The notes under the pieces: model-generated
Told to the model about the DNA's origin: nothing
Database searches by the model: none
What the model saw: the letters and a program-made list of their open reading frames with translations, nothing else
Assembly (NCBI GenBank): GCA_031268995.1
Contig: JAIRWK010000064.1
Coordinates: forward strand, 1-49,612
Reading direction: 5' to 3'
DNA: 49,612 bases
Source: Planctomycetaceae bacterium
GTDB taxonomy: Bacteria; Planctomycetota; Planctomycetia; Pirellulales; Thermoguttaceae
Program-made: the position numbers and the translations under genes
Shown: positions 6,355 through 46,760 of the stretch, piece by piece
Numbering within the stretch: the first letter of the stretch is position 1
How the letters are laid out: every line of letters begins with the position of its first letter

Positions 6355-6375
6355 TTTCAAAACAGCTTGAGTATA
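6354..6375 (-). mobile_element. family-A terminal fragment (22 bp)
   Basis: atttcaaaacagcttgagtata fills the flgG-flgA spacer and abuts the flgA ATG (gagTATAATG). Confidence 0.6.
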
Positions 6376-7629: not shown

Positions 7630-7636
7630 AATCGGT

Positions 7637-7740: not shown

Positions 7741-7796
7741 TTCAATAACCAATCCTATCACCTGTACCGACTGCGGTATAACTTTTTTATTAGAAA

Positions 7797-8483
7797 ATGA
7801 CTTATTTGTTTAGAAATTTATTTATTTTGTGTTTGTGTATGAATTTTTGTTGCGCTAATTTTGTGTTGGCGCAATCGGGTTCGCTTTCGGGTTCAACGAC
7901 ATTGCGGGCGGGTGAAGGTCGTCCGTTTACGATGGCGGAGGGTTCTGATTTGTACAGACCTGCACCGCGTCAAAAGGCGTATCAATTGCATGATATAATT
8001 TACATCAACGTTAAAAAAACATGGAACTACACGAACAACGCAACACTTACAAAAACGAAAAAAGTTGAGGCGGAAGCGAGGCTGACGTATTGGTCGAAGT
8101 TCAAGGGATTATTCAAAATGCCGACAAGTGCGGCGGGGGAAGCGTTACCGGAGATTGGCGGCGAGCTTGATCACAAAACACAAAATAAAGGAAATTTGAC
8201 GCATGCGGAAGCGATTGAGTTTGTGATAGCGTGTGAGATAGTTGACATTTTGGACAATGGCAATTTATACATTGACGGAACAACAAAAACTCAAATCGGT
8301 GAAGAAGGCAAGGTGATGTATGTTGGCGGATTTGTGCGACCTGATGATATTTCGGCAGACCATAGTATTTCGGCGGACAAGGTCTTGCACTTCAAGTTCA
8401 CAGACGTACCAAGCGGACAAATCTACGACACACAAAGAAGACCATGGGGAACAAAAATCATCGAACAACTAAAACCAATGTAA
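7797..8483 (+). CDS. flgH: flagellar L-ring protein FlgH
   Basis: Signal peptide, then LYRPAPRQKAYQLHDIIYINV ... GNLYIDGTTKTQIGEEGKVMYVGGFVRPDDISADHSISADKV, the typical FlgH core. Confidence 0.85.
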   Translation: MTYLFRNLFILCLCMNFCCANFVLAQSGSLSGSTTLRAGEGRPFTMAEGSDLYRPAPRQKAYQLHDIIYINVKKTWNYTNNATLTKTKKVEAEARLTYWSKFKGLFKMPTSAAGEALPEIGGELDHKTQNKGNLTHAEAIEFVIACEIVDILDNGNLYIDGTTKTQIGEEGKVMYVGGFVRPDDISADHSISADKVLHFKFTDVPSGQIYDTQRRPWGTKIIEQLKPM

Positions 8484-20319: not shown

Positions 20320-21819
20320 ATGTTTTCATTGAAACGCCTGTTATTGCTGTTTGCGCTCTTTTCGTTTCAGATTTTGTTTTGCGGCTTATTAGCGGCGCAA
20401 GAGTCTTTTCGTCCGTTCAGACCGTACCAACCGGAAGAGTTCGGCGGAGCGCGTCATGGCGATGAGGGTTTTACTTTCGATATAACTGGGATTGCGTGGA
20501 CGGTGAAGGGATTTAGTTGTCCGATAGGGGCGAGGGACGCTACGGGCAAAAGCATGGTTCGAACGGTTTATAACGGCAACAGCCAATACACACAATCAAA
20601 TACACTAAACGCCTCAAGCATGGGAAGCGGGCATCTCCAATTCGGTACCAGTTACGAATTGGGTTTCAATCGTGATCATTCTGGTTTTTTGTTTCGTGGT
20701 TACAGTATATCTGGGCTTGGCGGTTCGTTTGAGTCCGGTGATGTTGGCATGTTGACTTCGTCGGATGTGATTTACTCCGGTAAAAATAGCGGCGTTTTCG
20801 GGTCGATGGTTATTGATGACTCAAAAGCATCGACTTTGATCAACGTCGAATCCGCAACAGGACTGTCATACGCTTCTAACCGCATTTGGTCAACTGTTGA
20901 TGGCGGAGTGGTTGCGGCGAATAGGGTTGAGTATCTCACGCCTCTTACGGGTTGGATCCCAAGTGTTGCGCAGGGTACCAGCAGTAGCGATTCTGATTCT
21001 GATTCAAGTACTACTGCAGATCTTGCGATTTGGGCACCGTTGCCGATAAATTTTCCATACGTCAGATATTCCAGCTCTATCGATATTTTGAGTTTGGAAT
21101 TAATGTACACTTATAGACCTTATCCGCTTAAATGGGGTACGTTGAATCTTTACGGCGGGTTGCGGTATTTTGATGTCAAGGATTCGTTTGGTTTTACTGG
21201 AATTAGCTACGGCAATCCGACAGAAATAATTTCTACAGGCAGCACCGGTACTTCCTCCGACGATTCAAGTAGCAGCGACACTAGCGATGATGAAAGCAAC
21301 GATGACATTGACATAACGAACCTGACAACAACGATCAAAGCCAGAGTTGTAAACCAAATAACAGGTCCTCAAATCGGGGCTAAAATTGAGCGGCGTGCGG
21401 GACGTTGGACGTATGGAGCGGAAGGACGTTTATTGGCAGGTTTTAACAAGCAGACGAGTACGGTAAGCGGTAAATTTGCCTCGCAATTTATTGATGCGGG
21501 AGTTGATGTTGAGGGCGAAGGGCAAGTTGCGCCGTACAAAATGATCGCATTTACAAACAGACCGCAAGCGTTTTATCATCGTTCAAAAAGGGATGTTTTC
21601 TCGCCGGCTTTTGAGTTAAGATTGAATTTGAGATGGCAATGGACGGATTACGTCGGGTTCAATGTTGGTTTTAACTCAACCGTTATCGATAACATCGGTC
21701 GCGGTGCTGATGTCATTGACTATCGTTTCAATCCCGATGGTTCGTTGTTCAATATCCGTAAAAGCAACACCACTCTAACCACCTACGGCGTAAATTTCGG
21801 CGTGCAAGTTCGGAGATAA
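20320..21819 (+). CDS. putative outer-membrane beta-barrel protein with Ser/Asp-rich loops
   Basis: Signal peptide MFSLKRLLLLFALFSFQILFCGLLAAQ. Alternating hydrophobic beta-strand pattern toward the C-terminus (YGVNFGVQVRR). Low-complexity inserts SSSDSDSDSS and SSDDSSSSDTSDDESNDD. Family not firmly recognised (BBP7-like guess). Confidence 0.55.
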   Translation: MFSLKRLLLLFALFSFQILFCGLLAAQESFRPFRPYQPEEFGGARHGDEGFTFDITGIAWTVKGFSCPIGARDATGKSMVRTVYNGNSQYTQSNTLNASSMGSGHLQFGTSYELGFNRDHSGFLFRGYSISGLGGSFESGDVGMLTSSDVIYSGKNSGVFGSMVIDDSKASTLINVESATGLSYASNRIWSTVDGGVVAANRVEYLTPLTGWIPSVAQGTSSSDSDSDSSTTADLAIWAPLPINFPYVRYSSSIDILSLELMYTYRPYPLKWGTLNLYGGLRYFDVKDSFGFTGISYGNPTEIISTGSTGTSSDDSSSSDTSDDESNDDIDITNLTTTIKARVVNQITGPQIGAKIERRAGRWTYGAEGRLLAGFNKQTSTVSGKFASQFIDAGVDVEGEGQVAPYKMIAFTNRPQAFYHRSKRDVFSPAFELRLNLRWQWTDYVGFNVGFNSTVIDNIGRGADVIDYRFNPDGSLFNIRKSNTTLTTYGVNFGVQVRR

Positions 21820-25574: not shown

Positions 25575-26999
25575 TCATAATTCACTCAGTAATTTTGCGG
25601 CATCGCGGCGTTTGGCGAAAGGTGCTGTGCTGTTTAGTGCAAGATTAAGTAGGCGTTTTGCTTCGTCTTTGTTTCCTGCTTGCCTTTCTAAATTGGCGAT
25701 GTAGTAAGCTGTTGCCGAACTAACTCCTGAAGCGGTGGAACGTTGCAAGGCTTGTTTGGATGCGTCAAATTGATTTGCTTTGAATAGAACCCAACCGAAC
25801 GTACTCCAAAATTCTGTGTTTTGTTGATTTTTGCTTACGTTGTCGCGGGCGTAATCGATGGCGCGTTGTAATTTTTTGGGATCATTTTGCTCGCATAACG
25901 CCAACGCCAACCCGTTTACTGCTTGCGTGTCAGACGGCGAAATAACTATCAACTCCTGAAACAACTTTTCCGCCGCCGGATAATCATTCAAATAAAGCGC
26001 GATTGTCGCGCGAATTCTCGTCGCCGCTTCAAAATCAGGAAAATCACCCGCAAGTTTGTCCGCAAGTTTTTTCGCTTCTTCGGGCGTGTTGTCATTCAAC
26101 CGTGATTGAATCGACAGCAACAACACCTCTCTTGAATTCGGATGTTTCGCAAGCGCGTCCGTCAAATATTTTTTTGCGCTGTCGTGATCGCCGCGCGCCA
26201 AATATAAACGCGACAACATCGCCTCCGCTGGGAGTCCTTGTTCGGCGTTATTGGGTTGCGAGTCGGTTGGTTTAATTTTGATGTTGTCGGCACGGGCAAA
26301 TAGACTCGCTGCTTCGGCATCTTTTTTCTGCTGGAACAACGCAATACCCTTTTGCCTGAGCAACGCCGGTAATTCACCGTCATGCGCAATTCGCTTGTCC
26401 GCCAATTGATAATACAACTCCCACTTGCCGCGAACCTCCGCCAACAAAGATTGAAGACGTAACAACAAAGATGTCAGATTTTTTTTGCGTATCTTATTAG
26501 CCGAGTACTTGGTCAATTTCAATTCGCCTTCCCGCAAAAGCAAATCCGCAACAGTGAACTCTCGTTGTTGCAATGCAATTTCGCCGAGCAAAATATACGC
26601 TTCCGGATCGTCCGGCGTTTCGTTTGTTGTCATATCCAAAACGGGCTTTATGATATTTCCGTTTCGGGTTCGGACAAAAATTTGCGACAAAATAATTCCG
26701 GGCGGTTGTAATGAAGGATGTTGTTTGCAAAGGCTAGTAAGAATTTCTTTTGCACCGTTGATATCCGATTTGCCGATAGCCTTTACCGCCTCATCAACCG
26801 CCTTATCAAAATCAGCTTGAATTTCCGGCGAAATTGGGGTTTTACCGGTAGCGAGTTGCGAGTCTGGTTCTCCGTTTTTACCGGACGAATTTCGGTCGCA
26901 AGAAGTAAAAACCAACGACATCAGAACAACACAAATCACACACCCAACATTGACAAATCCAGACGGACATAAAGAAACCAATTTGAAAAATAGTTGCAT
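25575..26999 (-). CDS. TPR-repeat lipoprotein
   Basis: Lipobox-like LVFTSC after a hydrophobic N-terminus. Multiple TPR-like helical repeats (AYILLGEIALQQREFTVA..., AMLSRLYLARGDHDSAKKYL...). Confidence 0.7.
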   Translation of the reverse strand: MQLFFKLVSLCPSGFVNVGCVICVVLMSLVFTSCDRNSSGKNGEPDSQLATGKTPISPEIQADFDKAVDEAVKAIGKSDINGAKEILTSLCKQHPSLQPPGIILSQIFVRTRNGNIIKPVLDMTTNETPDDPEAYILLGEIALQQREFTVADLLLREGELKLTKYSANKIRKKNLTSLLLRLQSLLAEVRGKWELYYQLADKRIAHDGELPALLRQKGIALFQQKKDAEAASLFARADNIKIKPTDSQPNNAEQGLPAEAMLSRLYLARGDHDSAKKYLTDALAKHPNSREVLLLSIQSRLNDNTPEEAKKLADKLAGDFPDFEAATRIRATIALYLNDYPAAEKLFQELIVISPSDTQAVNGLALALCEQNDPKKLQRAIDYARDNVSKNQQNTEFWSTFGWVLFKANQFDASKQALQRSTASGVSSATAYYIANLERQAGNKDEAKRLLNLALNSTAPFAKRRDAAKLLSEL

Positions 27000-27082
27000 T
27001 TTTTGAAAACAAAAAAAAATACCTTCTCACCTGATCGCAGATGAAAAAAACAATGGACAAAAAGGAAAACGAAAAGGAAAAA

Positions 27083-27202
27083 ATATACCGGCTACGGAGT
27101 ATACCGAAGCCGGTATGGGCGGTAGGCTTCGCCCATGAACAACCGCTTCGCGATGCTACGCTTGCGTGTCCAGCTTCGGGAATTTCAAAACAGCTTGGGT
27201 AT
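27083..27202 (-). mobile_element. family-A element, full copy with a duplicated left terminus
   Basis: tataccggctacggagtata + ccgaagccggtatgggcggtaggcttcgcccatgaac...cagcttgggtata. Confidence 0.9.
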
Positions 27203-27314
27203 ATCTCTTGCATCCCAGATCGATCCAAACGATTCGGCGGTTGCACAACGCGCCGCAATTGGGTAAGATAATACCACAAACATAATTTTCGACAAGTATC
27301 CCATGCAAACATCT

Positions 27315-27355: not shown

Positions 27356-27604
27356 ACCGTTTACTTTGTCCCTTATGTCCTTTGTGTCCTTCATATCCTT
27401 CAAAAATATCACAAAAAAAAATAAAAACTATTTGCGCAATCAAGAGTGCAATACGCTTGAGAAAAATCGGGTATATTGTAACTCTTGGCGATTACAATAA
27501 AATATTGCCCTTTGATGAAACGCCCATTGTTGTATGGGGCGTTTATGCAGCGACTGGTATTGGCGAAGCGTACCAAACCAAATTTAACCAAAATTTAAAC
27601 TAAA

Positions 27605-29494
27605 ATGCGAACATTTTTTTTGACATTATTACTTGTTTTTGCGGCATTGATTTCGGGTTGTTCTGAAAGGGGAACGGGATCATCGTCGGATCCCGACAAC
27701 AACTCAAACCCGCAAAACCCAAACGCGGCACGAACAAACACTTCTCCGGCAAATCCGCTAGGTACACAATTAAACCCACCAGTTTCATTGCCGACTAAGG
27801 AGATGTTGTCGGCAATCGGCGATAAACAAAATGATCTTGATACACGTTGGTTTTTTACGGATTCTTATTACGTATTGACTGGGCAACCGAAGAAATTTTT
27901 TGAAACTGAAATAGGTAAAGGAACGGAAGACGTTTTATCCAACGTATTTAACACGGTATTTCAATTGCAATTTCCGATTGACTACAGCAAAGTTGAACGA
28001 TTTACGCTTGCGGTTGCGCCGCAGGGTGAAATCACTTTTGTAGAAGCTGCCGCAGACGGTACAAAAAATAACCGCCGTTCGCTTGCCCTGCGGCGAGTAA
28101 ATATATTTAACCTCAGCGAACCCACCGCCGACGCAATGATACAAACAATCTGGAAATCGCAATCAAATACTCCAATCGATTCCATCAAACGGCAAATCGG
28201 CAATGTTGAATACTATAATTTGCTACCGCCAAACGTCCCAACCGACCAAATTTGTGCCGGAATACATTTGCCCGATAAACACACAATTATCATCTTTATC
28301 ATGCTTACCGAAGACGCGAATAAATTGTTCGCAGGAAAACCAAACGCTACCAGCGCAGCTGTTGAGCGTATTAAGCGAATGGATATTTCATCGAGCTTAT
28401 TGTCGTTGTCTGCGTCGTGGGAAGGCGTGATGGCAGACCCGATGCGAATAGCTGAAATACCTTTTATCGGCTCGGTGTTGAGTGGTTTGGGCAACGAAAA
28501 CGCGATTCAGTTTTTGAAGAATTTCCGTGCAATAAATATGTCAATTAACACATCAGCACAGGTCGGTACGCCAATGTTGTCTGTGAGATACGACGCGGTG
28601 GATAATGACGGTGCGGCGAGTTTGCACGAATTATTTCTTGGGCTACTCGTTACCGCCAAAACCGTATTTGCAACCGCCAAAGAAGACACAACTTCATCGC
28701 TGTTGTCTAAAGAAACAACAACGAATTTGCTCAATTCAATTGAACTCAAAAAAGCAGACGATACCGGAGTTGATTTGCGTATCAACAAATTTGAGGGATT
28801 CGATACAACTTTAAAAAGCGGTTTTGCGGAAACAGCCGACAGATTCCGTCAAGAGAAATTGGCAATGCAGAAAATTGAACAACTAAGAAATTTGACGGAC
28901 ACTTCGATTCAATACGACCGGTTAAATAAAAAATTTCCGCAACCTATTCGCGATGCCGATGGAAAACAACTTTTGAGTTGGCGGGTTGCTGTTTTACCGC
29001 TTATCGGGCAACAGGAACTTTACAATAAATTTAACCTAAAAGAAGCATGGAACAGCCCCGCAAATTTGCAACTTGTAGAACAAATTCCCGCCCCATTCGC
29101 ACCAATTGATGGCAATATCGCAAAAGGTAAAACACAAATTCAACGCTTCGCCTCTGCGGGAACTCCGCTTGCGGATGAGAACCTAACCATCACAAGCATT
29201 AAACAACCGCGTACTACTTTGTTGTTGACGCAAACTTCGGCGGAAAGTGCAATCGAATGGACAAAACCGGACGAGTTGGTTTACGATGAAAATAATGTGG
29301 AGAAAATTTTTGGCAAATCGATTGTTGGAATAACATTCGCGGGTCTGCCGATTTTGCAAGACCTCTTGCCCAAAGATAACCAACAAAGTAAAGAACAACG
29401 TGCACAGTTGTCCGCCTTCATAAAGGGCGAAGAACTGCCAGCACCAAACTCAAACCACGATCGCGATCACGATCATAACCAATTGACGAAATGA
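27605..29494 (+). CDS. lipoprotein with a C-terminal DUF1559-like motif
   Basis: Lipobox ALISGC. LSWRVAVLPLIGQQELYNKFNLKEAWNSPANLQLVEQIPAPF resembles the conserved DUF1559 core common in Planctomycetota. No prepilin N-terminus. Confidence 0.6.
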   Translation: MRTFFLTLLLVFAALISGCSERGTGSSSDPDNNSNPQNPNAARTNTSPANPLGTQLNPPVSLPTKEMLSAIGDKQNDLDTRWFFTDSYYVLTGQPKKFFETEIGKGTEDVLSNVFNTVFQLQFPIDYSKVERFTLAVAPQGEITFVEAAADGTKNNRRSLALRRVNIFNLSEPTADAMIQTIWKSQSNTPIDSIKRQIGNVEYYNLLPPNVPTDQICAGIHLPDKHTIIIFIMLTEDANKLFAGKPNATSAAVERIKRMDISSSLLSLSASWEGVMADPMRIAEIPFIGSVLSGLGNENAIQFLKNFRAINMSINTSAQVGTPMLSVRYDAVDNDGAASLHELFLGLLVTAKTVFATAKEDTTSSLLSKETTTNLLNSIELKKADDTGVDLRINKFEGFDTTLKSGFAETADRFRQEKLAMQKIEQLRNLTDTSIQYDRLNKKFPQPIRDADGKQLLSWRVAVLPLIGQQELYNKFNLKEAWNSPANLQLVEQIPAPFAPIDGNIAKGKTQIQRFASAGTPLADENLTITSIKQPRTTLLLTQTSAESAIEWTKPDELVYDENNVEKIFGKSIVGITFAGLPILQDLLPKDNQQSKEQRAQLSAFIKGEELPAPNSNHDRDHDHNQLTK

Positions 29495-30443: not shown

Positions 30444-30473
30444 AAAAATTACAAAAAAATCGTCGAGTTGAAA

Positions 30474-31310
30474 ATGAGTAAATACCGTGTTGGTGTTTGT
30501 GTGAATTTGTTGTGTTGGGTGAGATTTGGGTTGTTTTTTGTGGCGATAAATTTTGGGTTGGCGGTGCAATCTGAATTTTTGTTACAAAAAATTGCCTTTT
30601 CTGCTGAAGGCACAGCGGGCAAAGAAAGGCAAGCGGTTCGTGTTCTCAAGTTGGACAACAAGGCGATTACGGATACTGAGCTTGGTGAGATTGTTTCTAA
30701 CAATCCTGAGTTAGTTGAGTTGACGCTTGGCGGTACGAAGGTTACAGATGTGGGGCTTGAGCATCTTGTGCGTTTGAAAAAGTTGCGTACGGTGAGGTTG
30801 AGCAAGACGGCGATTACTGATGTTGCCGGCGAAAAGTTGGCTAAGATTCCAACGCTTCAAAATATTGATGTCTCGCAAACGAATTTTGGTGATGTTGGTT
30901 TGGGAGCGTTGAGGTCTTTGGCAAAACTCAAAAGTTTGAATTTTTATTTGACCAATATTAGCGATACCGGCGCGGCGAAAATTAAGGATTTTAGCTCCGC
31001 AAAAACAATAACGCGGCTCAATGTTGATTTGTGTAAAATTAGCGATGCGGGGGTGCGAAATTTTTTGGTGCTTGAAAATCTTGAGTGGATACATCTTGGC
31101 GGCACGGCGGTTACGGATGTGGTTTTGGATGATGTGGTGAAGTTTAAAAAATTGAAGGAAGTAATAGTAACAAAAACCTCTGTTACCAAATCCGCCGCAG
31201 ACAAGTTGCGTAAAAATATGCCGGATTGCAAAGTACAAGATAACTTCAGCAACAACATCACCGACGAACAAATAAAACAAGCAAAAGAATTACGCCAAAA
31301 GAAAAAATAA
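30474..31310 (+). CDS. leucine-rich repeat protein with signal/TM anchor
   Basis: Repeated ~24-aa LRR units ending in TD(V/A)GL / SDTGA (LTLGGTKVTDVGLEHLVRLKKLRTVRLSKTAITD...). ATG at 30474. Confidence 0.75.
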   Translation: MSKYRVGVCVNLLCWVRFGLFFVAINFGLAVQSEFLLQKIAFSAEGTAGKERQAVRVLKLDNKAITDTELGEIVSNNPELVELTLGGTKVTDVGLEHLVRLKKLRTVRLSKTAITDVAGEKLAKIPTLQNIDVSQTNFGDVGLGALRSLAKLKSLNFYLTNISDTGAAKIKDFSSAKTITRLNVDLCKISDAGVRNFLVLENLEWIHLGGTAVTDVVLDDVVKFKKLKEVIVTKTSVTKSAADKLRKNMPDCKVQDNFSNNITDEQIKQAKELRQKKK

Positions 31311-31590: not shown

Positions 31591-32289
31591 ATGTCTGATT
31601 CGTTTACATTTTTTAAGACGCAAATAGGGATGTCTGTAATTGACACGTTGCAGCTTGGGAGTCCGTTTAATTATTTTGAGCAAGTTACGCTTGTGATTGT
31701 GCGTGATGCGCCGTTACCTGATTCGCGTGAGGATATTTTGCGTTCTTATTATGTTGCGGCGATTCGGAAATATCTTGCGGAGACGGGCGGCGGTGCGTTT
31801 GTGCTTTTTACTTCGTATAGTTTGCTCAAACGCACGGCATCTGATTTGACATCGTGGCTTGTTGAACGTGAAATGCCGATATTGGTTCAAGGCGATGGTG
31901 TTCCGCGAAACGAAATGATTCGCCAATTCAAAAATTCAAACCGTGCTGTTTTATTTGGAACGGATAGTTTTTGGCAAGGTGTGGATGTACCTGGTGATTC
32001 GCTCAGAAATGTAATCATTACGAGGCTTCCTTTTCTAGTGCCAAATCAACCTGTTGTTGAAGCTAAAATTGAATCTATAAAAAATCGGGGCGGCAATCCC
32101 TTCAACGAATACCAATTGCCAACCGCAATCCTAAAATTTAAACAAGGCTTTGGCAGATTAGTTAGGACAAAATCGGATCGCGGACTGGTAGTTGTACTTG
32201 ACCCTAGAATACATGCAAAATCTTACGGCAAAAATTTCATAAAAGCCCTGCCGCAATGCAAAACCAGATTCGATCAAACAACAGACTAA
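31591..32289 (+). pseudogene. dinG: DinG/Rad3-family helicase, C-terminal (helicase_C_2) fragment only
   Basis: LGSPFNYFEQV...VLFTSYSLL...VLFGTDSFWQGVDVPGDSLRNVIITRLPF...KQGFGRLVRTKSDRGLVVVLDPRI covers only motor domain 2. The frame opens at 31576 inside a family-A repeat, and the ATG abuts the repeat end. Confidence 0.6.
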
Positions 32290-32680: not shown

Positions 32681-32918
32681 AAAAAATATCTGAATTATCT
32701 TGAAAAAATTATCCAAAAAATTGTAGGAATTAAGCGAAACGTACCGATTATGAGGGATGACAGTTGGGTTGCGTAACAAGCTGAAATGTGTCCCAATATA
32801 ATTACTGATACGTTGCCAAAATTATACCGTAGTTGGTATGGGCGAAACCTGCTGTCTGCAATGGCTAATGGTATTTTGGTTTGTTGTATTTTACAATTTT
32901 GACAAGAAAGGGTTTTCC

Positions 32919-33104
32919 ATGAAAGTGAACACAAGATTCCGACAAAATGCAAATGTTGATCTCGCAAAAAACCGGTCAACAAAAAAGTCTATTTTGAAAA
33001 AAATCATTCAAAAATTGACATCAAAAAAATTGCGGCAAATACTAGGAACCGTTGCAATTACATCCTTGATTCTTGTTAAAATGGGGGGGGGGGGGGGGGC
33101 GTAG
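32919..33104 (+). CDS. detached signal-peptide segment of the downstream autotransporter (out of frame at the poly-G)
   Basis: MKVNTRFRQNANVDLAKNRSTKKSILKKIIQKLTSKKLRQILGTVAITSLILVKMGGGGGA*: a basic n-region plus hydrophobic h-region, ending inside or just after the G tract. Confidence 0.6.
   Translation: MKVNTRFRQNANVDLAKNRSTKKSILKKIIQKLTSKKLRQILGTVAITSLILVKMGGGGGA
33083..33099 (+). repeat. poly(G)17 homopolymer tract
   Basis: Counted directly: 33083-33090 (8 G) plus 33091-33099 (9 G). Confidence 0.95.
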
Positions 33105-33193
33105 GGAATAATGGCACGCTCTACGCCGATGGTAATGATATTACTCTGTCCGAAATTACTGATACCTTTGACGTACCCCAAGAAGGTCCTGCT

Positions 33194-36100
33194 GTGGGTG
33201 TGTTCATTGATTCTAACAATACTAAATATTATCTCAGTGGTGATACGTATGGTGATGATAGTGGTACAGACTATGCTTCCAGCAATATTGGGTTAAGTAG
33301 CGGCGGTATTACTCTTACTTCTGCTGAAAAAGCGCAGCTTGGTGCGATTTTCTCGAATGACAAAAGTTTGAACTTCGACTTTGGTACAAGCTCCATTTCT
33401 GTTATAAATTCATCTGAAACTGGGGCATTGACGGCGGGATTTGGTTATGTAAATACTGATGCTTTTGGCGGTACTCTTAACGCAACCGGCGCAAGTGGTG
33501 AAGAGACTCCTGAGTATTCCGTTACGGCTTCTGGCGGTTCTGCGTTTGGTTTTGTGTTTGCCAAAGGGACTAGCGTTCTAAGCAGCGGTGTTGCGAATTT
33601 ATCAAATGCAACAATTGATCTTGTCGGAAGTGGAGCAACGATTACTGTTTCAAATTCAGGTGACGACAGCAATTCGTTTGGTTTTGTTGCCGGTGATTTG
33701 AAAAAATCGACAATAAAACTTGGTGAGATTACGTCCCAAATTACCGGTACTGGCGGCGATGAAACGAGTTTGATTCATGGATTTATTGCGGGTGATGTTA
33801 GCAAAAATAGTAAGATTGCACTTTTAGATGTTACCGCTAAAACAACCTGTCAAGCCACAAGTGGTAATGTTTTGGCGGTTGAGTTAAAAGAAATTAGAGG
33901 TTGTGTTGAAACAGGGAATATTGTTGCAATTGCCAACTCTGGTGATGCAACAGGATTTTCCGCATTGGCAATTTTAGGAAAAGTAAAATTGGGGGACATT
34001 AATGTAACTACAACAACAAGTGGTTCGGCACAAGGTGTTGTTATTGGTCGTCATGCCGAATTTGACGTGCCAGAATCTCCATCAGCTAATTCCGCAAAAA
34101 TTTCAGGTCATATCAATGTTGGTGATATTGTAATAAATTCTGTCGGCAACGGAACGGGATTTTTTATTCGCCACGATATTACTAATGCGAGTCAGTGGAA
34201 GAACAATCTGCCGTTGCCGATTGTTCTCTCTGGTAAAGTCGAACTCGGTAAAATTAACATAAAGTCACAAAATCATGCAATTGGTTTCCTCATAAGTAAT
34301 GGTAATTATGCCTCATCAATTAATGCACCTGAAATCACTGGTACTGGTACTGCTACTGCTAATGTTACGTTTGGGGACGACATTGCAGTAGTAAGTACCG
34401 GTACTGGAACCGGAGTGGCGATAGGAATTTCTCTCGGAGATTTTACCGGTGACCCAAAGGCGGATCTTGCCTCTGCCCGAAGTGGTAGTATTGTTTTAAA
34501 AGGCGATATTACGGCTACATCCGCGAACGATTACGCACTTGGTATTCACGCCGGACAATTGGAAAGTCTTGAAGTCAATACGAATATTTCAGCGGAAACA
34601 AGTAAAAATAATGTCAATTATTATGCTTACGGCATTTACACTCGCGGATACACAGAAGGTGCTAGTAATTCTGATGTGACTAAAGATAAAAATAGCGTAA
34701 TCAGTATCACAGGCGGTTCAATTTTTGCAACAGCAACCAGCGCAGCAACCGCCGCCAGTATCATAATGGATTCGACATGTGACGATGTTGTCAATATCGA
34801 TGCCGGAACAACAAGTACAGCGTGGACCAATAATGACGGTACAAATGATCGAGCGTTTACGTTGATCGGCGTGGAAACATTGAATGTCAAGCGAGATACC
34901 CAATTGGTAGCCGGTAGTAAACGCGGAACCGCGACCGTTGCCGACAAAGTTGCGACTACGAATGTTGATGAAGATAAAACGCTTTCAGTTTACGACACAT
35001 TCTTCAACGGCGGCTCACAGAAAAAGATAGGCAAAGGAACTATCTCTATCATAAGAGACGATAGTAGTACTGGTACAGGAACTTTATCGAAACTCGAAAT
35101 CGCCGGAGGAATTTTTGAGTTAATAGGAAGTACAAAAAATGCCAAAACTACGCTTCTCTTTGCTGAGGATAGTTCAAATGCCCAAGACATTATCAAAATT
35201 GGTGGAGGCGCAACATTGAAAATTTCAGGTGAGAATGTTGCTTTAATCAATGTAGCACAGGTAGCTGCATACTTAGATTTTACGAACGAACAAGCCATTT
35301 ATGAGACAAATCCACATCTTAACATGACGGTTGACGGCGGAACAGTTGAAGTGATCGGTGCAGAAAGTTTATATGCAGCCGGTCTCAATGTTTTCATCGG
35401 TAACAGCGGCGCAATAATTAGTGTTACAAATAAAGAGGAGGAGTCCTCAAGAGTTGTTGTTAGCGATATTGCGGCAACTACAAGTGCAACCACTCCTAAT
35501 TTGACGAAAACTGGTAACGGAAAACTGGAAATTCTGTACGGTTTTGATCTCGAAAAAGGAACAATTAATGTCAACGGAGGAACTTTCGAATTTAATAACA
35601 GCAGTGTTAATACTACACCCTTCACAACTTCTGCTAAAGTCAAAAGTATTGTTGTTGACGGAGAAGATGCTGTTCTTGATCTTAAAGCATACTCTTATGT
35701 TACAGTTCATGAAACCAATGAAGCCGCTTTGACAATTAAAGACGGGGGTACGGCAAAAGTCGATGTTTTATCAAGACTTGTTAATAGCACGTGGGATACC
35801 ACAGCAAGTCCCGTATTTAATGTTGCAATTAACGGTGGAACTCTTGAAGTTTACGATGGATCAAAATTGGCTTCAGAGACGAATTTTACTGAAGACCAAG
35901 TTGCCACTCTATTGAACCCGCATTTAGCTGGTGTTACAACAACCGTAACAAATACGGCAACAATCAATGTCGGTGAAGGTATTACTTTCGATCCAGGTGT
36001 TGTGAAAACCAAAACAAACGACAGCACAGCCAGTATAACAAAAATCGGAGACGGAACACTTCGTATTCTATACGATTTTGATTTCGCAGATGGAACAATT

Positions 36101-39100
36101 AATGTCAACGGAGGAACTTTCGAATTTAATAACAACGGAGTTAAAGCTAACCCCGCAACTTCTGCTAAAGTTAAAAGTATCGTTGTTGATGGAGAAAATA
36201 CTGTTCTTGATCTTAAAGCATACTCTTATGTTACAGTTTATGAAACCAGTGAAGCCGCTTTGACAATTAAAAATAATGGTACGGCAAAAGTCGATGTTTT
36301 ATCAAGACTTGTTAATAGCACGTGGGATACCACAGCAAGTCCCGTATTTAATGTTGCAATTAACGGTGGAACTCTTGAAGTTTACAACGGAGAATCTTCG
36401 GATGATACCAATATATTGAACCCGCATTTAGCTGGTGTTACAACAACCGTAACAGATACGGCAACAATCAATGTCGGTGAAGGTATTACTTTCGATCCAG
36501 GTGTTGTGAAAACCGAAGCAAACAACAGTACAGCCAGTATAACAAAAATCGGAGAAGGAACACTTCGTATTCAATACGGTTTTGATCTTGGCGGCGGCAA
36601 TATTGATGTTAAGAATGGAACATTGGCAATCAATCCCGATACAAAAGATCATCCTCTGACAGTTAATGCCAATGTTAAACTGAACGCTAACAATTTAATT
36701 ATCGGCGAAGCCGACGACAATAAGGCGCAATCAATTACCATCGGAAGTATCTGCGGAAGTTCCGAAAGTACAACAATTATTAACGCTGGTGATTCATTGA
36801 TCATCACAAAAGGCAGTACTTACGGCGGAAAAATAACCGGCGGCGGTAATTTAACCGTAGCCAGCGAAACATTGACGTTAAGCAATAAAGATAACAATTA
36901 TTCCGGCACAACAACACTCAACGAAAACGTTAATTTGATAATTTCAAACGGCGGTACTTACAGCGGAAAAATAACCGGTGCCGGTGATTTAACCGTAACC
37001 AGCGGAACATTGACGTTAAGCAGTACAACTAACGATTACTCCGGTACAACAACACTCGGCGGCGAGTTGTCCGTAACCATAGACAGTGCCTTGAGCGCGA
37101 ATAGTAATTACGTTGTCGGAAATAATGGTAAATTGTCAATCAATGATTCCGCACAAACAATCAAGACTCTTAACGGCACAGACGGCGAAGTTAATCTGGG
37201 AACAACCGGTAATTTGACAATTTCAAACGGCGGAAAATTCGACGGAGAATTAACCGGTGGCGGCACTTTAACCATATCAGGCGAAGAATTGACCTTGACC
37301 GGAAGTTATTCCAAAACAGCTAAATTCGCCGTCAATACCGGAACTCTTTTACTTGATCATTCAACATCTGAAGAATCTAAAAATATTACGTTTAGTAATT
37401 CATTGACCGGAAGCGGAACACTTGCAGTTAAGTTGAATGCTTTAACCGATACGTTTACTTTAGGAACAGATACCATAGATACCGGTTTTAGCGGAACCAT
37501 TGAAATGAAAAATGGAATTTTTGCAACAAGCAATTTCACACAATTGACAAACGTAGGACTCAAATTAAACAGCGATTCAAGCACTACAATTGACGAGAAT
37601 CTATCCATTTCAAAATTAACCCTCAACGGCGGACAAATCAATTTTGTCGCGGCTCCCGTAACTCCAACCGCGAAATTAACCGTTACCGATCTTGTGATTG
37701 GTAACGACGGCGGAATTATAGGTGTTGATCAAACATTAGACATTGTTACGACGAATACACCACCGTCAACACAAAATATTTTCGATTATTGGAATGATGA
37801 CGCTAATTACCAACAACAACTTATTGCTGTTGAAGGTACCATCACCAGAGACGGAATCATCACACCTGATTCGGTCGCCAGCATCGAACAATCACGAAAT
37901 CTTGTCAACGGCGGTGTCGCAAAATTTAATTACAATGTCAGTGTCGATAGCGATAGCTCTTCCGCCCAAAAAGGAATCTATCTCGGTTACGGTTTGGTTG
38001 AAATAGAGAGTCCAGCGGATAAGACCGTTACACTAGATACGACAAACGCAACCAATCCGAAATTGACCGCGAAATTAACCGGAAACGGCGGTTTCAAATT
38101 CATCGGAACCGGCAGCACGTCGCAAGTTGAAATCGGTAACAGTGACAGCAATTATTCCGGTAACACTGAAATTGATAATCTGAAAATAAAAATGCTTGAC
38201 GATAAAGCATTCGGAACAGTCGCCAATTTATCACTCACAAATAACGCCGAACTTGATATGAATTCCAAGACCGCAAGCGTTGCACAACTTAACGGAGATA
38301 ATGATACAAAAATTAATGTCGGTGATTTAACCGTTACAAACGGCGGCAATTTTGCCGGACAATTAACCGGCATCGACAGTAATTTAACCATAACTGGCGG
38401 AACATTGGCATTAAGCAATAATGCTAACGATTATTCCGGTACAACAACACTCAACGGCGGTAATTTGTCCGCAACCGTAACCAATGCCTTGAGCGCGAAT
38501 AGTGATTACGTTGTCAATGGTGGTAAATTGTCAATCAATAATTTCGCACAAACAATCAAGACTCTTAACGGCACAGGCGGCGAAGTTAATCTTGGAACTG
38601 GTAGTTTGACAATTTCAAACGGCGGAGCCTTCAGCGGAAAATTTGCCGGTAGCGGTAATTTAACCGTAGATGCCGGAACATTGAACTTGACCCAAAACTA
38701 TTTCGCAACCGGCGGCGTTACCATAAACTCCAATGGAACACTTTTGCTCAATCCATCAACCGGAAATGGTACGTTTAATAATTTATTGACCGGAAGCGGA
38801 AAACTTGCGGTTGGTTTGAGTGATACCGACAAGACATTCACTTTAGGAGCAGGTGCCGGAACTGGTTTTACCGGAACTCTTGAGATGAACAAAGGAATTT
38901 TTGCAACAAGCGGTTTCTCACAATTGATAAACGTAACCCTCAAATTAAATGATAATTCACGAATCAAAATCGACAGCAATCTGTCCGTTGCAAATTTAAC
39001 CCTCAACGGCGGACAAATCGAATTTGCCGCCAATCCATTAACTCCAACCACAAAATTAACGGTTGCGAATTTGAATATTGCAAACGGCGGAAAAATAAAG

Positions 39101-41338
39101 ATTGATAATACCGCCAATAATATAAATACGTCATTATCATCGACTCAGAATATTTTTGATTATCACAGTGATCCAGTTAATTATCAGCAACAACTCGTCG
39201 CAGTTACAAACCAAATCACCGGAAGCGGAACCATCACACTCGATCCGTCCGCCAACACCGGACAAGAACGAAATCTTGTCGGCGGCGGTGTCGCAAAATT
39301 TAATTACAATGTCAATGTCGATAGCTCTTCCGCCAACAAAGGAATCTATCTCGGTTACGGTTTGGTTGAAATAGATAATCAAGGAAATACCGTTACATTA
39401 AATACAGCAGGCGCAACCAATCCGAAATTGACCGCGAAATTAACCGGAAACGGCGGTTTCAAATTCATCGGAACCGGCATCACGTCGCTGGTTGAAATCG
39501 GTAACAGTACCAGCAATTATTCCGGCAACACTGAAATTGATAACATGAAAATAAAATTGACAGACAATAACGCCTTCGGACAAACATCAAATTTATTGCT
39601 CACAAATAACGCCAAACTCGATATGGATTCTCACGCCGTAACCGTGAAACAACTTGACGGAAGTAATACTACAACAATTACTAACGCTAACTTAACAATC
39701 ACAAACGGCGGTAACTTCGGCGGACAATTAACCGGTAACAATAATTTAACCTTGACCGGCGGCGAATTAACCTTGACCGGAAATAACTCAACCGCAACCG
39801 GAACATTTAACCAAACCGGCGGTATCATGAATTTACAAAATACTTGGGGCGGAAATTATGCTCTCGGAAATAGCGCAACATTAAATTTGTCCAACTCCTC
39901 ACAAATCGGCGGTAACATAAATCTCGCCGGTATAGTTGATATAACAAATGGAAAATTAAATGTTGTCGGAGACCTTAATATTGCTGGTGGTTCGGTTGTG
40001 AAAATGACTATCGATGAAAATAAAATTACCGCGAATAAAATAACTATAGATGATAACGCCCAAATAATATTGACCGCAATTCCTAACGGTACAATAAATA
40101 ACGTTATCGTTTCAACTACACCATTCACAGAAGAACAAATCACAAAACTTAACTCCAAATTCACATTGACCGACAAATTACTTGTGTCATTGAAACCGGT
40201 CTATAGTGCCGACTACAAAAAAATGGGCTTCGAAAGCAGCTCACAATCCACCATCGCTTACACCGCCAATAGTAACTTCAGCGGTAACCAAACCCAAATC
40301 GCCGGCTTGCTCGACGATTGCCCAGACGTACAAACGATATTGCAATCGCTCGATACTCGCGAACAGCTCGAAGGTTTGGTCAAAAGTATGCTTGCGCCGG
40401 AGCTTGCGGCAGACGCTCGCGATTTAGCTTTGAATAGCCCATACGTCCACGTCTCCAATCACCTCAATAATTTGTCCGCCACTCCCGCCAATAATACTCC
40501 CAACACACTATTTCGCGGACAATCCCCACACAACAACATCGCCACACAAAGTAACCACGAATTTTGGTTTGAAGGCTACTATCAAAGCGGCAAAACAAAC
40601 GGCGACTCAAACGCACTAGGCTACAAAACATCACGCGGCGGAATGATGGTCGGTGTTGATAAATATTTCGGCGATGGGTTGTTGACGGGGTTGGTTTTCG
40701 GTTACGGCAATCCGCGAACTTATAACTCAACTGGTAAAATTGAAGCCGACGACTACACGTTCGGCGTTTACGCAAAACTAAAAATATTCGGCATCTACGC
40801 CAACACTTTCTTGGGATACGGAAGCCAAAATTACCAGTTGCGCCAAAACCAAATTAACCCAACTCAACACACCAAATTTAACGGTGACTCAACATTCGCA
40901 AGTTTAGAATTGTTCAAACCGATCTATTTGCGCAACGATATGTTGGTTGCGCCGCTAGTTGCAATTGACTTTCAAAAATCATGGTCAGACGGTTTCAATA
41001 CAAACAATATTGTCCCGCTCACCGTCAAAAAAGGTGAAATGGATCAAACGGTCTTGCGACTCGGTGTCAACTCAAATTACAGAAATTGGCGAACACGTTT
41101 ACAATACGGCTACCAAGTTGCGGGCGATTTGTACAGCACCTCCAGAACCTCACTCACCGGCGGCGGTAATAACAGAGTCTTGTCAGGTGTAAATCTCGGT
41201 CGCCATACCTTCAACGCCGGATTCGGCGGCGATTTCCAAATCGGCAATCGCACAAAACTATTCGCCGACTACGACCTCGATCTAGGTGAACGCACCACAA
41301 ATCACACTGGACAGTTCGGGGTTGTCTGCAACTTTTAA
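33194..41338 (+). CDS. giant autotransporter (PATR-repeat passenger plus C-terminal beta-barrel); the frame is open from 33080 through the poly-G
   Basis: Many 'G-x-G-x-LT(V/I)-x-x-G-x-LTL-x-x-x-N-(D/N)YSGTTTL' autotransporter-associated beta-strand repeats. C-terminal ~275 aa (from ~40510) has the autotransporter beta-domain pattern, ending ...GQFGVVCNF. No signal peptide in the tracked ORF. Confidence 0.85.
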   Translation: MGVFIDSNNTKYYLSGDTYGDDSGTDYASSNIGLSSGGITLTSAEKAQLGAIFSNDKSLNFDFGTSSISVINSSETGALTAGFGYVNTDAFGGTLNATGASGEETPEYSVTASGGSAFGFVFAKGTSVLSSGVANLSNATIDLVGSGATITVSNSGDDSNSFGFVAGDLKKSTIKLGEITSQITGTGGDETSLIHGFIAGDVSKNSKIALLDVTAKTTCQATSGNVLAVELKEIRGCVETGNIVAIANSGDATGFSALAILGKVKLGDINVTTTTSGSAQGVVIGRHAEFDVPESPSANSAKISGHINVGDIVINSVGNGTGFFIRHDITNASQWKNNLPLPIVLSGKVELGKINIKSQNHAIGFLISNGNYASSINAPEITGTGTATANVTFGDDIAVVSTGTGTGVAIGISLGDFTGDPKADLASARSGSIVLKGDITATSANDYALGIHAGQLESLEVNTNISAETSKNNVNYYAYGIYTRGYTEGASNSDVTKDKNSVISITGGSIFATATSAATAASIIMDSTCDDVVNIDAGTTSTAWTNNDGTNDRAFTLIGVETLNVKRDTQLVAGSKRGTATVADKVATTNVDEDKTLSVYDTFFNGGSQKKIGKGTISIIRDDSSTGTGTLSKLEIAGGIFELIGSTKNAKTTLLFAEDSSNAQDIIKIGGGATLKISGENVALINVAQVAAYLDFTNEQAIYETNPHLNMTVDGGTVEVIGAESLYAAGLNVFIGNSGAIISVTNKEEESSRVVVSDIAATTSATTPNLTKTGNGKLEILYGFDLEKGTINVNGGTFEFNNSSVNTTPFTTSAKVKSIVVDGEDAVLDLKAYSYVTVHETNEAALTIKDGGTAKVDVLSRLVNSTWDTTASPVFNVAINGGTLEVYDGSKLASETNFTEDQVATLLNPHLAGVTTTVTNTATINVGEGITFDPGVVKTKTNDSTASITKIGDGTLRILYDFDFADGTINVNGGTFEFNNNGVKANPATSAKVKSIVVDGENTVLDLKAYSYVTVYETSEAALTIKNNGTAKVDVLSRLVNSTWDTTASPVFNVAINGGTLEVYNGESSDDTNILNPHLAGVTTTVTDTATINVGEGITFDPGVVKTEANNSTASITKIGEGTLRIQYGFDLGGGNIDVKNGTLAINPDTKDHPLTVNANVKLNANNLIIGEADDNKAQSITIGSICGSSESTTIINAGDSLIITKGSTYGGKITGGGNLTVASETLTLSNKDNNYSGTTTLNENVNLIISNGGTYSGKITGAGDLTVTSGTLTLSSTTNDYSGTTTLGGELSVTIDSALSANSNYVVGNNGKLSINDSAQTIKTLNGTDGEVNLGTTGNLTISNGGKFDGELTGGGTLTISGEELTLTGSYSKTAKFAVNTGTLLLDHSTSEESKNITFSNSLTGSGTLAVKLNALTDTFTLGTDTIDTGFSGTIEMKNGIFATSNFTQLTNVGLKLNSDSSTTIDENLSISKLTLNGGQINFVAAPVTPTAKLTVTDLVIGNDGGIIGVDQTLDIVTTNTPPSTQNIFDYWNDDANYQQQLIAVEGTITRDGIITPDSVASIEQSRNLVNGGVAKFNYNVSVDSDSSSAQKGIYLGYGLVEIESPADKTVTLDTTNATNPKLTAKLTGNGGFKFIGTGSTSQVEIGNSDSNYSGNTEIDNLKIKMLDDKAFGTVANLSLTNNAELDMNSKTASVAQLNGDNDTKINVGDLTVTNGGNFAGQLTGIDSNLTITGGTLALSNNANDYSGTTTLNGGNLSATVTNALSANSDYVVNGGKLSINNFAQTIKTLNGTGGEVNLGTGSLTISNGGAFSGKFAGSGNLTVDAGTLNLTQNYFATGGVTINSNGTLLLNPSTGNGTFNNLLTGSGKLAVGLSDTDKTFTLGAGAGTGFTGTLEMNKGIFATSGFSQLINVTLKLNDNSRIKIDSNLSVANLTLNGGQIEFAANPLTPTTKLTVANLNIANGGKIKIDNTANNINTSLSSTQNIFDYHSDPVNYQQQLVAVTNQITGSGTITLDPSANTGQERNLVGGGVAKFNYNVNVDSSSANKGIYLGYGLVEIDNQGNTVTLNTAGATNPKLTAKLTGNGGFKFIGTGITSLVEIGNSTSNYSGNTEIDNMKIKLTDNNAFGQTSNLLLTNNAKLDMDSHAVTVKQLDGSNTTTITNANLTITNGGNFGGQLTGNNNLTLTGGELTLTGNNSTATGTFNQTGGIMNLQNTWGGNYALGNSATLNLSNSSQIGGNINLAGIVDITNGKLNVVGDLNIAGGSVVKMTIDENKITANKITIDDNAQIILTAIPNGTINNVIVSTTPFTEEQITKLNSKFTLTDKLLVSLKPVYSADYKKMGFESSSQSTIAYTANSNFSGNQTQIAGLLDDCPDVQTILQSLDTREQLEGLVKSMLAPELAADARDLALNSPYVHVSNHLNNLSATPANNTPNTLFRGQSPHNNIATQSNHEFWFEGYYQSGKTNGDSNALGYKTSRGGMMVGVDKYFGDGLLTGLVFGYGNPRTYNSTGKIEADDYTFGVYAKLKIFGIYANTFLGYGSQNYQLRQNQINPTQHTKFNGDSTFASLELFKPIYLRNDMLVAPLVAIDFQKSWSDGFNTNNIVPLTVKKGEMDQTVLRLGVNSNYRNWRTRLQYGYQVAGDLYSTSRTSLTGGGNNRVLSGVNLGRHTFNAGFGGDFQIGNRTKLFADYDLDLGERTTNHTGQFGVVCNF
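35500..36600 (+). repeat. intragenic tandem duplication, period ~505-540 nt, ~2 copies plus a partial third
   Basis: LTKTGNGKLEILYGFDLEKGTINVNGGTFEFNN...NVAINGGTLEVYDG repeats as ITKIGDGTLRILYDFDFADGTINVNGGTFEFNN...NVAINGGTLEVYNG. The DNA is near-identical over long stretches. Confidence 0.85.
37030..39600 (+). repeat. intragenic duplication of a ~1.2-kb module (period ~1.37-1.39 kb)
   Basis: 37031 aacgattactccggtacaacaacactc... parallels 38417 aacgattattccggtacaacaacactc.... 38090-38190 parallels 39455-39560 (GGFKFIGTG...EIGNS.SNYSGNTEIDN.KIK). Confidence 0.85.
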
Positions 41339-44741: not shown

Positions 44742-46760
44742 TTATTGTGTGTCGCGTTTTTTGGGTAGAATTAGGCGTTCCCAATCGGATGGTTTTGATA
44801 CTTTTCCTGCTTCGTTTACTTGGAAGTGTTTGGTGATGGTATCAAGTTTTTGCGCGGTTGTGGCAATCGTTGTTACGGCATCGGCGGCTTCAGTTACAGC
44901 AACCGTGTTTTCGTCCGCTGTACCGCTCAACTGCGAAACCGCCGAATTGACATCGTTAAGACTTCGCGTTTGCTCGTCCGCTTCTTGACTGATCTTTGAA
45001 ATGATCTCGTTGACCTGACTCACTTGGTCTGCAATCGAATTGAGCGATGCCGACGTTTCACTGGCAACCTTACTGCCAATATTTACCTGATGAATCGACT
45101 CCTCAATCAGTCCCGCCGTCTCTTTCGCCGCCTTCGCACTCCTCGCCGCAAGACTCCGAACCTCCTCCGCAACTACCGCAAACCCCTTGCCATGTTGACC
45201 CGCCCGCGCCGCCTCAACCGCAGCATTAAGAGCAAGAAGATTCGTCTGAAACGCAATATCATCAATCACCCGAATAATTTTCTTAATCTCCTCCGAACTC
45301 TTCGTAATCCCATTCATCGAATCAACCATCCGGTTCATTTTTCCTTGACCTTCGGTTGTTCCTTTGTGGGCTTGGTTCGCAAGCGATTCGGCATTTCGGG
45401 CATTGTCGGCAGTTTGTTTCGTTTGCAAATTAGCTTGATTGATCGAGCCGGAGACATCTTTCAATTGCGCCGCGCTTTCCGTCGTGTTGGCAACAAGACG
45501 CTGATTTGTATGCGTTAAATTTTCGCCTTCCTCCGTAACAGCTCCCGCAACCGTTTTCAAATCCTTGATCGAATCGTAAAAACTATAACGCATCTCAATC
45601 AAAGCATTGCCCAACGTATCTTGTTCTGAATTTAGCGGCACCCACACACGGAGATCTCCTCTGGAAATCGTCAAAGCCACTTCGGTTTTTTCTTTGAGCG
45701 ACGCGGCAACTTGTTTGAACGCATTCGCCAAAATCTCCAACTCATCGCCCGTATTCACCTCCAACTCCATCTCCAAACTACCTTCCGCCAAATCCTTTGC
45801 CGCTCCCGTCATCTGCCGAATCGGTCGTACAATCCGACGAATGATAAACCAAAGCAACAAAATAAAAAACACCAGACCAACCAAAGCAATCGTAAGATTA
45901 CTCAGAATATTATTACGGATAATAATATCGTTTTCTGTTATCGGAAGTCCGGCAAAAATAATACCCAACACCTTTCCGCTTCCCGAAGTTACCGGATAAT
46001 AAAAGACTTTCATCTTATTGCCCAAAACGAGCGACTCGCCGAAATACTCTTTTTTGTCCTCAAGAGTAGATTTCTTGACAATCGGGTCTGTTAATTTTGT
46101 TCCTATTGCCGGTTTTCCGTCCGCAGTTTTCAACGTGGTCATATAACGCACGTCCTCAATAAACACGGTATTCTCAACACCGAATTCGTTTTGAACATGT
46201 TTAACCCACGCCTCCGTGTCAATTCGGAAACCGCTTGAAAGCACGCCGAGCAAGGTTCCGTCCGTGTCCCAAATTGGTGCTGCGCCGCGAATTGATAGTT
46301 TGATTGTCTCTGTACTTTCAAAAAATACACCGGCTTTTTTTTGTTCCAGAGCAAATTTGATACTGTCTGTTTGCCCAAGTACGTCTCCGAACTTCTGGCG
46401 GTTCGCCGTCCGCGCTAACACTTTGCCATCTACGCCAATCACCGTAAAAAACTCACATTTTTTCGAGGATTCGTAGCTGTCGAAAATTTTGAAAATCGCC
46501 TCTCTGTCTTTATTTTTTACTGCGGCGACCATTGATCCCATGTATGAAATGGCTTTGGTTTGTTCCAATGTCAAATCCTGAAGCATGGAAATTTCCTTTT
46601 TTATATCGCGCCCAACCGTGTCAATATTCTTCTGCGAACTGTCCTGAACAAAATCTCGAAATTTTGCCGTACTCGTCGCAAGCGTAACACCAACAAGTAA
46701 ACAGGTCATCACAATGACCGGAACGATAATTTTTGATTGGATTCCTTTGAATATTTTCAT
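44742..46760 (-). CDS. methyl-accepting chemotaxis protein (Cache-like sensor, HAMP, MA domain)
   Basis: TM - periplasmic Cache-like region - TM - HAMP ([20 protein letters not shown]) - signalling hairpin [43 protein letters not shown]. Confidence 0.9.

Follow-up and report, generated by a model that had tools for sequence, protein, structure and literature searches.

We examined a complete 49,612-bp contig of a Planctomycetaceae bacterium (JAIRWK010000064.1, assembly GCA_031268995.1, present in NCBI and IMG; here called the window), in which an uninterrupted run of 17 guanines (G17; positions 33083 to 33099, plus strand) lies inside the region that codes for the export signal of a giant autotransporter. 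From the sequence and its comparison with homologous loci, we consider it probable that G17 is a reversible slipped-strand contingency locus, that is, a DNA-level switch placed in the signal-peptide region of this gene. The two split reading frames are plain in the sequence, a G tract is conserved at the same site among homologs, and both its length and the resulting frame differ from one homolog to another. We favor the contingency-locus reading because the tract is fixed in position while its length and offset vary, because six of the seven copies that are out of frame (OFF) are intact, and because the wrong frames run into early stops.

The longest run of G or C in the window after G17 comprises 7 bases, and the number of runs of at least 17 G expected from base composition is ∼1e-7 for the window; the tract is therefore not a chance feature. 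It is read as glycine codons in both of the frames that it separates as assembled. The leader open reading frame (ORF), in the frame of an ATG at 32919, encodes MKVNTRFRQNANVDLAKNRSTKKSILKKIIQKLTSKKLRQILGTVAITSLILVKMGGGGGA and ends at a TAG (33102 to 33104, plus strand) two codons past G17, in the assembled (OFF) frame; leader stops in the other OFF homologous loci fall 0 to 5 codons past the tract. The passenger frame is open from 33080, right after a TAA at 33077 to 33079, where it reads NGGGGGGVGNNGTLYADG... (in a longer reading, NGGGGGGVGNNGTLYADGNDITL...), and it runs for 2745 codons with no stop up to 41338. When one G is added computationally to G17, a single product of 2806 amino acids (aa) with zero internal stops results, and by frame arithmetic 15 G likewise fuses the leader and passenger frames. 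The passenger ORF as mechanically called (GTG 33194 to 41338; 2714 aa) begins VGVFIDSNNTKYY... and has no hydrophobic leader, and a putative Sec signal peptide comes to stand on the same polypeptide as the C-terminal barrel only after a tract change of +1 or −2, although two homologs (P0002 and P0030) carry the leader already fused. These results bear out the initial annotation of the locus, which had described a run of 17 G between a signal-peptide ORF (ATG 32919 to TAG 33102 to 33104) and a passenger in another frame, open from 33080 and passing through the tract as Gly codons, had calculated that 18 or 15 G would join the two into a protein of ∼2.8 kaa, and had pointed out that the start at GTG 33194 has no export signal.

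The ORF listing extends the leader ORF to an in-frame upstream ATG at 32838, a start that we rejected on finding that positions 32838 to 32918 align with the 5′ region of homologs before their shared ATG. In the alignment, the ATG at 32919 coincides with that of each of the eight other homologous loci; the motif AAGGnTTTTCC precedes the ATG in 9 of 9 loci, and we therefore take 32919 to be the start. The ribosome-binding region of the window, AAGAAAGGGTTTTCC (32904 to 32918, plus strand), stands directly 5′ of this ATG. Farther upstream, all family loci have a conserved block ∼110 to 180 nucleotides (nt) 5′ of the ATG (..CCGAT[AT]..GGG.. plus a GTTACGTAAC-like palindrome), which may be a shared promoter or regulator site. 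The window's copy of this block spans 32740 to 32802, and in the window an extra insert of ∼75 nt lies between it and the ribosome-binding region. Part of this copy is a near-palindrome, GTTGCGTAAC (32768 to 32802, plus strand), which aligns with the GTTACGTAAC-type sequence upstream of the homologs and overlaps a putative promoter, a sigma-70-like match returned by a promoter scan at 32773 to 32802 (GTAACA, 18 nt, TATAAT; 10 of 12 matches).

Translation and homolog alignment delimit the first part of the predicted signal peptide (32919 to 33082, plus strand), which consists of a long basic n-region with a net charge of +12 over 40 residues and a hydrophobic core, ILGTVAITSLILV, whose 13-aa Kyte-Doolittle maximum is 2.50 (residues 41 to 53). 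In alignments, this leader matches the N termini of P0002 and P0030, two homologs that are in frame, as well as five leader ORFs that stand alone at other loci. Past the Gly run, all nine loci read (V/L)G..x(Y/F)A followed by D, A, or G; in the window, the c-region is GVGNNGTLYA in the passenger frame (33098 to 33127, plus strand), with a predicted signal peptidase I site after YA. The motif also marks the start of the mature part in distant relatives whose signal peptides are of the ordinary short type (P0042, ..TTLA↓ADV; P0037, ..GFA↓DDV; arrows mark the cut). We infer that signal peptidase I cleaves after YA, between 33127 and 33128, which would place the Gly run in the signal peptide that is cut off, with the h-region before it and the c-region after it, and would leave the mature protein without it. 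Because the Gly run would lie in a discarded leader, tract lengths differing by 3 (11 and 14; 15 and 18) could all be ON. The fusion of signal peptide, Gly run, and passenger foreseen in the initial annotation thus stands, with the Gly run now placed inside the signal peptide, upstream of YA↓D.

Downstream, the passenger domain (33128 to 40561, plus strand; ∼2480 aa) is open throughout and is followed by a C-terminal autotransporter beta-barrel translocator and the stop codon (40562 to 41338, plus strand). The assignment to the autotransporters that had been made before any database search is upheld by a match to PF03797 (Autotransporter beta-domain) over profile positions 1 to 255 of 255 (E = 3.7e-36; residues 2495 to 2732 of the translation from 33080, reaching position 41275). 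An AlphaFold model of the first 700 residues has low confidence over residues 1 to 90, with helices at 19 to 33 and 36 to 44, and from about residue 140 it is all-beta and made up entirely of short strands, with a predicted local distance difference test score (pLDDT) of up to 95. A Foldseek search with the passenger model gave no significant match in the PDB, the weak matches being nearly all right-handed beta-helices, and a phmmer search against PDB sequences returned nothing. A weak match to PATR was found in Pfam, and a match to the ECSE_1600-family autotransporters fell far below the NCBIfam cut-off. The passenger is probably beta-helical, and the whole protein would be a classical (type Va) autotransporter of ∼2800 aa, presumably an adhesin.

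Homologs were obtained from termite-gut Planctomycetaceae metagenome-assembled genomes (MAGs) and metagenomes and represent nine distinct loci, including the window. A query consisting of the hypothetical fused N terminus recovered two relatives, P0002 (locus L001), in which the leader, five Gly, and the passenger lie in one frame and the DNA reads GGC-G11-A, and P0001 (locus L002), which is split like the window into an 81-aa leader ORF, then G14, and a passenger in another frame. An HMMER profile search of 1.84 billion representative proteins added six stand-alone, leader-only ORFs of 59 to 87 aa that end just past the Gly run (the window's own leader among them), long passengers in which the first 83 to 104 profile positions are missing, and one further in-frame N terminus, P0030. 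A protein-pattern scan of metagenomes yielded no relatives, a genome scan returned only the contig already known, and exact-sequence look-ups with the window's proteins found no other record and no second copy of the exact locus.

The G tract occupies the identical codon position in 9 of 9 loci (36 to 74% aa identity), right after the ..S-V-(K/N)-(I/L/M/V) that closes the hydrophobic core and 8 to 10 codons before [YF]-A-[D/A/G]. Its length ranges from G11 to G17, and the frame varies with it: two loci carry GGC-G11-A and are in frame (L001 and L009; ON), five carry G12 and are out of frame with one G too many (L004, L005, L006, L007, and L008; +1), and L002 (G14) and the window (G17) are each out of frame with one G too few (−1), giving 2 ON and 7 OFF loci. 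Related pairs occur in opposite states, with L001 ON and L007 OFF at 74% aa identity and L009 ON and L004 OFF at 60 to 67%. The downstream ORF is intact in 6 of the 7 OFF copies (2745, 3336, 1781, and 1047 codons to the stop or the contig end), L002 being the one exception.

Most pairs of passengers are 36 to 53% identical, with saturated synonymous sites, and the tract is kept throughout. GGG is the rarest Gly codon in the passengers (45 of 1274; 3.5%), so that the chance occurrence of four consecutive GGG codons has P = 1.6e-6 per locus; the survival of a tract built from this codon in such diverged loci argues that the conserved feature is the nucleotide homopolymer itself and not just an oligo-Gly stretch. 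Together with the nine-locus comparison, this rare-codon tract strengthens the suggestion, made in the initial annotation, of a candidate slipped-strand ON/OFF switch. Ratios of nonsynonymous to synonymous substitution rates (dN/dS) between homologs range from 0.3 to 0.9 with dS mostly >1, and because dS is saturated they are uninformative about selection in OFF copies; the closer pair L001/L007 (132 codons; dN/dS ∼1.2) offers too few sites. A distant homolog, P0029 (3782 aa; L010, positions 1 to 110), has C22 on the coding strand at the homologous place, before ..RLFA↓QTTHD.... A separate tract census, reading the reverse strand, scored this homopolymer as G23, and between it and the contig end there is only GC-rich low-complexity junk; either the switch has a poly-C variant here or the assembly broke down at the homopolymer.

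In the mechanism that we propose, slipped-strand mispairing during replication would add G residues to the tract or remove them from it. With 15 or 18 G, the n-region and hydrophobic core (32919 to 33082) would be joined through oligo-Gly to the c-region, passenger, and barrel, and the fused protein would undergo Sec export and insertion into the outer membrane, the ON state. At other lengths, including 17, translation from the ATG at 32919 would end within a few codons of the tract, and the passenger would be left without a start codon that bears an export signal. With the tract lying upstream of YA↓D, changes of 3 nt would alter only a linker that is discarded, and the reading frame alone would matter. 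We infer that such slippage takes place in vivo and is reversible. The locus resembles simple sequence repeat (SSR) contingency loci in several respects: the repeat (G17) is far longer than composition predicts, its number switches the product between full length (18 G, 2806 aa) and an early stop (17 G, TAG at 33102), and among homologs the position of the tract is conserved, its length and frame are variable, and OFF copies are intact.

Several observations weigh against this reading. The length variation comes from diverged homologs, which are paralogs or belong to other species, and not from alleles of the window gene. The tract is exactly G12 in five OFF loci and falls short of the in-frame length by exactly one G in two others, a pattern that could partly reflect consensus miscalls, and tract lengths in such assemblies are soft, as the contig break in L010 and contigs with identical flanks and differing G counts illustrate. 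L002 has a second passenger frameshift at ∼2480 to 2520 that is not at a long homopolymer, past which a passenger-like sequence is read in another frame as far as the contig end; it could be due to decay, strain mixture, or misassembly, and at least one member of the family may thus be decaying. Finally, the signal peptide and its cleavage site are predictions from composition and conservation, and the fused leaders of the window and L009 have no match to ESPR (extended signal peptide region; PF13018) or any other Pfam family at E ≤ 0.01; the leader is ∼70 aa long but of another type than ESPR.

Among the alternatives, the one that survives best is that the consensus was miscounted and that the true tract has 18 (or 15) G, with the gene in frame in most cells, in which case the tract could still be hypermutable. 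We hold this to be unlikely, and recognize that the OFF state as assembled is the weakest point of the switch reading. A 17-nt homopolymer could be miscounted by one in a short-read metagenome assembly; the homolog contigs are named in the MEGAHIT style, a sign of short reads, both the window and L002 lack exactly one G to be in frame, and the L010 contig ends in C22 and GC-rich junk at the homologous site. Furthermore, G counts are not the same in unrelated metagenome contigs whose flanks are identical (15, 17, and 15 in L095, L118, and L119; 17, 18, and 13 in L056, L112, and L126; 13 and 17 in L034 and L051; 15 and 21 in L055 and L063; and 13 and 17 in L066 and L110); long G tracts across assemblies are in general either polymorphic or unreliably counted. 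The five G12 loci, however, would have to err in the opposite way, with one G too many, which speaks against a single systematic bias, and general experience with short reads suggests that tracts as short as G11 or G12 are unlikely to be wrong in all five. The 7 OFF loci among 9 are also close to the two-thirds out of frame that are expected of a freely slipping tract.

Programmed recoding as the main route of expression is a still less probable explanation. Here the DNA would be fixed out of frame, and slippage by RNA polymerase or a −1 shift of the ribosome on G GGG GGG would yield constitutive low-level expression. It is general knowledge that 17 identical bases make a plausible slippery site for RNA polymerase and tRNA-Gly, and most family members are out of frame and yet have intact ORFs. 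However, the shift that is needed differs among the loci (+1 for those with G12, −1 for G14 and G17, and none for two loci), whereas at programmed sites the length and the offset are both normally kept constant, and no stable RNA structure was found downstream of the tract, where folding is no better than in shuffled sequences (z = +1.0). Some leaky, slippage-derived expression may nonetheless take place on 17 G alongside DNA switching. Least of all do we believe that the gene is a decaying frameshifted pseudogene and its tract a mutational accident, for although it is out of frame as assembled, L002 has its second passenger frameshift, and poly-G autotransporter genes of Campylobacter have been read as decaying and not phase-varying (PMC7168839), a stop-free frame of 2745 codons (8.2 kb) cannot persist in a 41% GC genome without selection, other OFF loci are likewise open for up to 3336 codons, and the tract, leader, ribosome-binding site, and upstream region are conserved even though synonymous sites are mostly saturated.

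A DNA pattern derived from the tract context, which required at least 12 to 13 G and to which shorter in-frame alleles are therefore invisible, matched at least 120 metagenome contigs, with no autotransporter relatives among the matches listed. In at least 23 cases, on ∼20 contigs, the tract falls within a short gene leader whose reading goes on as ...(G/A)FTLVELLVVIAIIG...; matches to N_methyl and DUF1559 were confirmed for three of these genes. DUF1559 is a type-IV-pilin-like family typical of planctomycetes. The tracts in these genes are G12 to G17 long and lie after the ATG and before the prepilin cleavage motif ((G/A)FTLVELLVV), so that they too are located in a cleaved leader (L022, L024, L025 [two genes], L032, L040, L049, L057, L058, L067, L069, and L071; further, L079, L080, L092 to L094, L099, L116, L117, L125, L127, and L128), and several contigs carry two poly-G DUF1559 genes. 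About half are in frame among the matches listed, but we rejected the ON-to-OFF ratio as evidence, since a pattern needing at least 12 to 13 G makes it uninformative. Across ∼318 kb of DUF1559 and autotransporter-family loci, there are five further tracts of at least 12 G, four of them upstream of pilin-like genes and the fifth the homopolymer at the contig end of L010.

These occurrences suggest that these planctomycetes make general use of poly-G in their leader peptides, and they thereby raise the prior for the tract in the window. The pattern appears to be family-wide and is possibly lineage-wide. More tentatively, and with slightly less than an even chance of being right, we envisage a lineage-wide phasome of leader-peptide poly-G tracts, in which two unrelated exported families with G11 to G17 in the cleaved leader would give each cell a stochastic subset of surface proteins. 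Two further details of tract context were observed. The codons directly 5′ of the G run read Val-Lys-Ile/Leu (GTTAAA[A/T]T[A/G]) in the autotransporter and DUF1559 families alike, a resemblance that is partly forced by the pattern, and similar contexts precede two extra tracts that were found without it (GTGGGAAAA-G17 and GTAAAAGCA-G12). The tract in L067 (∼280 to 330) and in DUF1559 leaders like it is directly preceded by a second ATG in another frame (ATGTTAAA[A/T]T), so that two of the three tract-length classes might give a translatable DUF1559 leader (MK..VKI-G4 or MLK/N-W-G4).

Phase variation by homopolymer slippage is textbook knowledge for mucosal pathogens. In the Opa proteins of Neisseria, CTCTT repeats are located in the region coding for the cleaved leader, where the frame alone matters and not the encoded residues; that system differs in having a pentanucleotide repeat and small beta-barrel adhesins, against a homopolymer and a giant autotransporter here. 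Closest to the arrangement in the window are two other systems, the first being pilC in Neisseria gonorrhoeae and N. meningitidis, in which a homo-G tract in the signal-peptide region undergoes frameshifts that switch a surface/adhesion protein (PMC5354566). Poly-G in the signal-peptide coding region is common to both, whereas PilC is a pilus-associated adhesin of a proteobacterial human pathogen and not an autotransporter, and its switching was established experimentally, while ours is deduced from sequence.

The PmpG autotransporters of Chlamydia provide a second parallel, with poly-G or poly-C tracts of 8 to 19 or more bp at conserved positions (PMC6740158; see also PMC3323650). In one expanded PmpG group, more than half of the members are frameshifted near the tract with an undecayed barrel, and the authors interpreted this as ON/OFF switching (PMC6740158). 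Both cases involve a multicopy autotransporter family with G or C tracts at conserved positions in the Planctomycetes-Verrucomicrobia-Chlamydiae (PVC) superphylum. However, most chlamydial tracts are ∼1300 nt from the gene end and not in the signal peptide, the tract of C. trachomatis PmpG is near the gene start and in frame in all genomes, and the chlamydial hosts of these genes are obligate intracellular pathogens, in contrast to what is apparently a flagellated gut planctomycete. The 2752-aa translation has no match to the Pfam family Chlam_PMP (repeats GGA[ILV] / FxxN), and no passenger relationship to chlamydial Pmp was detectable. In Campylobacter, capC and capD have poly-G at a position that is conserved across the genus, within the coding sequence in capD, and much of their inactivation was interpreted as lineage-linked decay and not as tract-driven switching (PMC7168839); OFF copies of the planctomycete family are, in contrast, otherwise intact.

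In the literature searched, we found no report linking Planctomycetota to SSR phase variation. The expectation that a homopolymer switch would be notable in this lineage holds to the extent that the phylum and the ecological setting appear to be new for a poly-G switch, while the kind of mechanism is already known from pilC and PmpG. If the phasome reading is true, Planctomycetota would, as far as the literature searched goes, gain its first reported contingency-locus system, one that operates in a nonpathogenic symbiont. If the switch in the window is real, uncultured planctomycetes, probably of termite guts, would be hedging their bets over costly surface proteins of 2800 to 3800 aa, and they would have come to the same solution as Neisseria pilC, poly-G in a discarded leader, with a parallel in the Pmp proteins of their PVC relatives, the Chlamydia. 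There is also a consequence for annotation: gene callers split such genes into a "hypothetical protein" of ∼60 aa and an N-terminally truncated giant ORF without an export signal, six of the split-off leader ORFs sit in protein databases, and the surface proteomes of these MAGs are therefore misannotated.

The window encodes members of DUF1559/SBP_bac_10 and BBP7, Pfam families that are typical of planctomycetes. The closest autotransporter homologs are in MAGs labeled Planctomycetaceae bacterium and in NCBI assembly GCA_031279215.1, and one close homolog is from isolate Pcl387_bin71, part of a MAG series that is reported to stem from the guts of lower termites (10.1101/2025.08.05.668610, preprint). 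On the basis of this gene content, the MAG labels, and the Pcl387 origin, the source organism is a planctomycete that is probably gut associated and probably from a termite. Positions 4611 to 8483 and 44742 to 46760 hold a flagellar rod/ring cluster (FlgF/G-like, FlgA, and FlgH) and a Cache-HAMP-MCP (methyl-accepting chemotaxis protein) chemoreceptor, and we therefore take the organism to be motile.

Other features of the window are a BBP7 porin-like protein (20320 to 21819) and a lipoprotein with a DUF1559-like segment (27605 to 29494). Two A9 runs (27011 to 27019 and 27413 to 27421) are intergenic, upstream of the gene for a tetratricopeptide repeat (TPR) lipoprotein (25575 to 26999, minus strand). 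We rejected the idea that a minus-strand ORF beside the A9/T9 run (26878 to 27312; 144 aa) is another frameshifted gene, since by eye its translation does not resemble a real protein and the TPR lipoprotein starts downstream of the run. A 232-aa ORF at 31591 to 32289 (plus strand) matches solely Helicase_C_2 (E = 4.8e-49), an N-terminal DEAD_2 part being absent upstream, and may be the remnant of a truncated DinG-like helicase; a gene for a leucine-rich repeat protein is located at 30468 to 31310.

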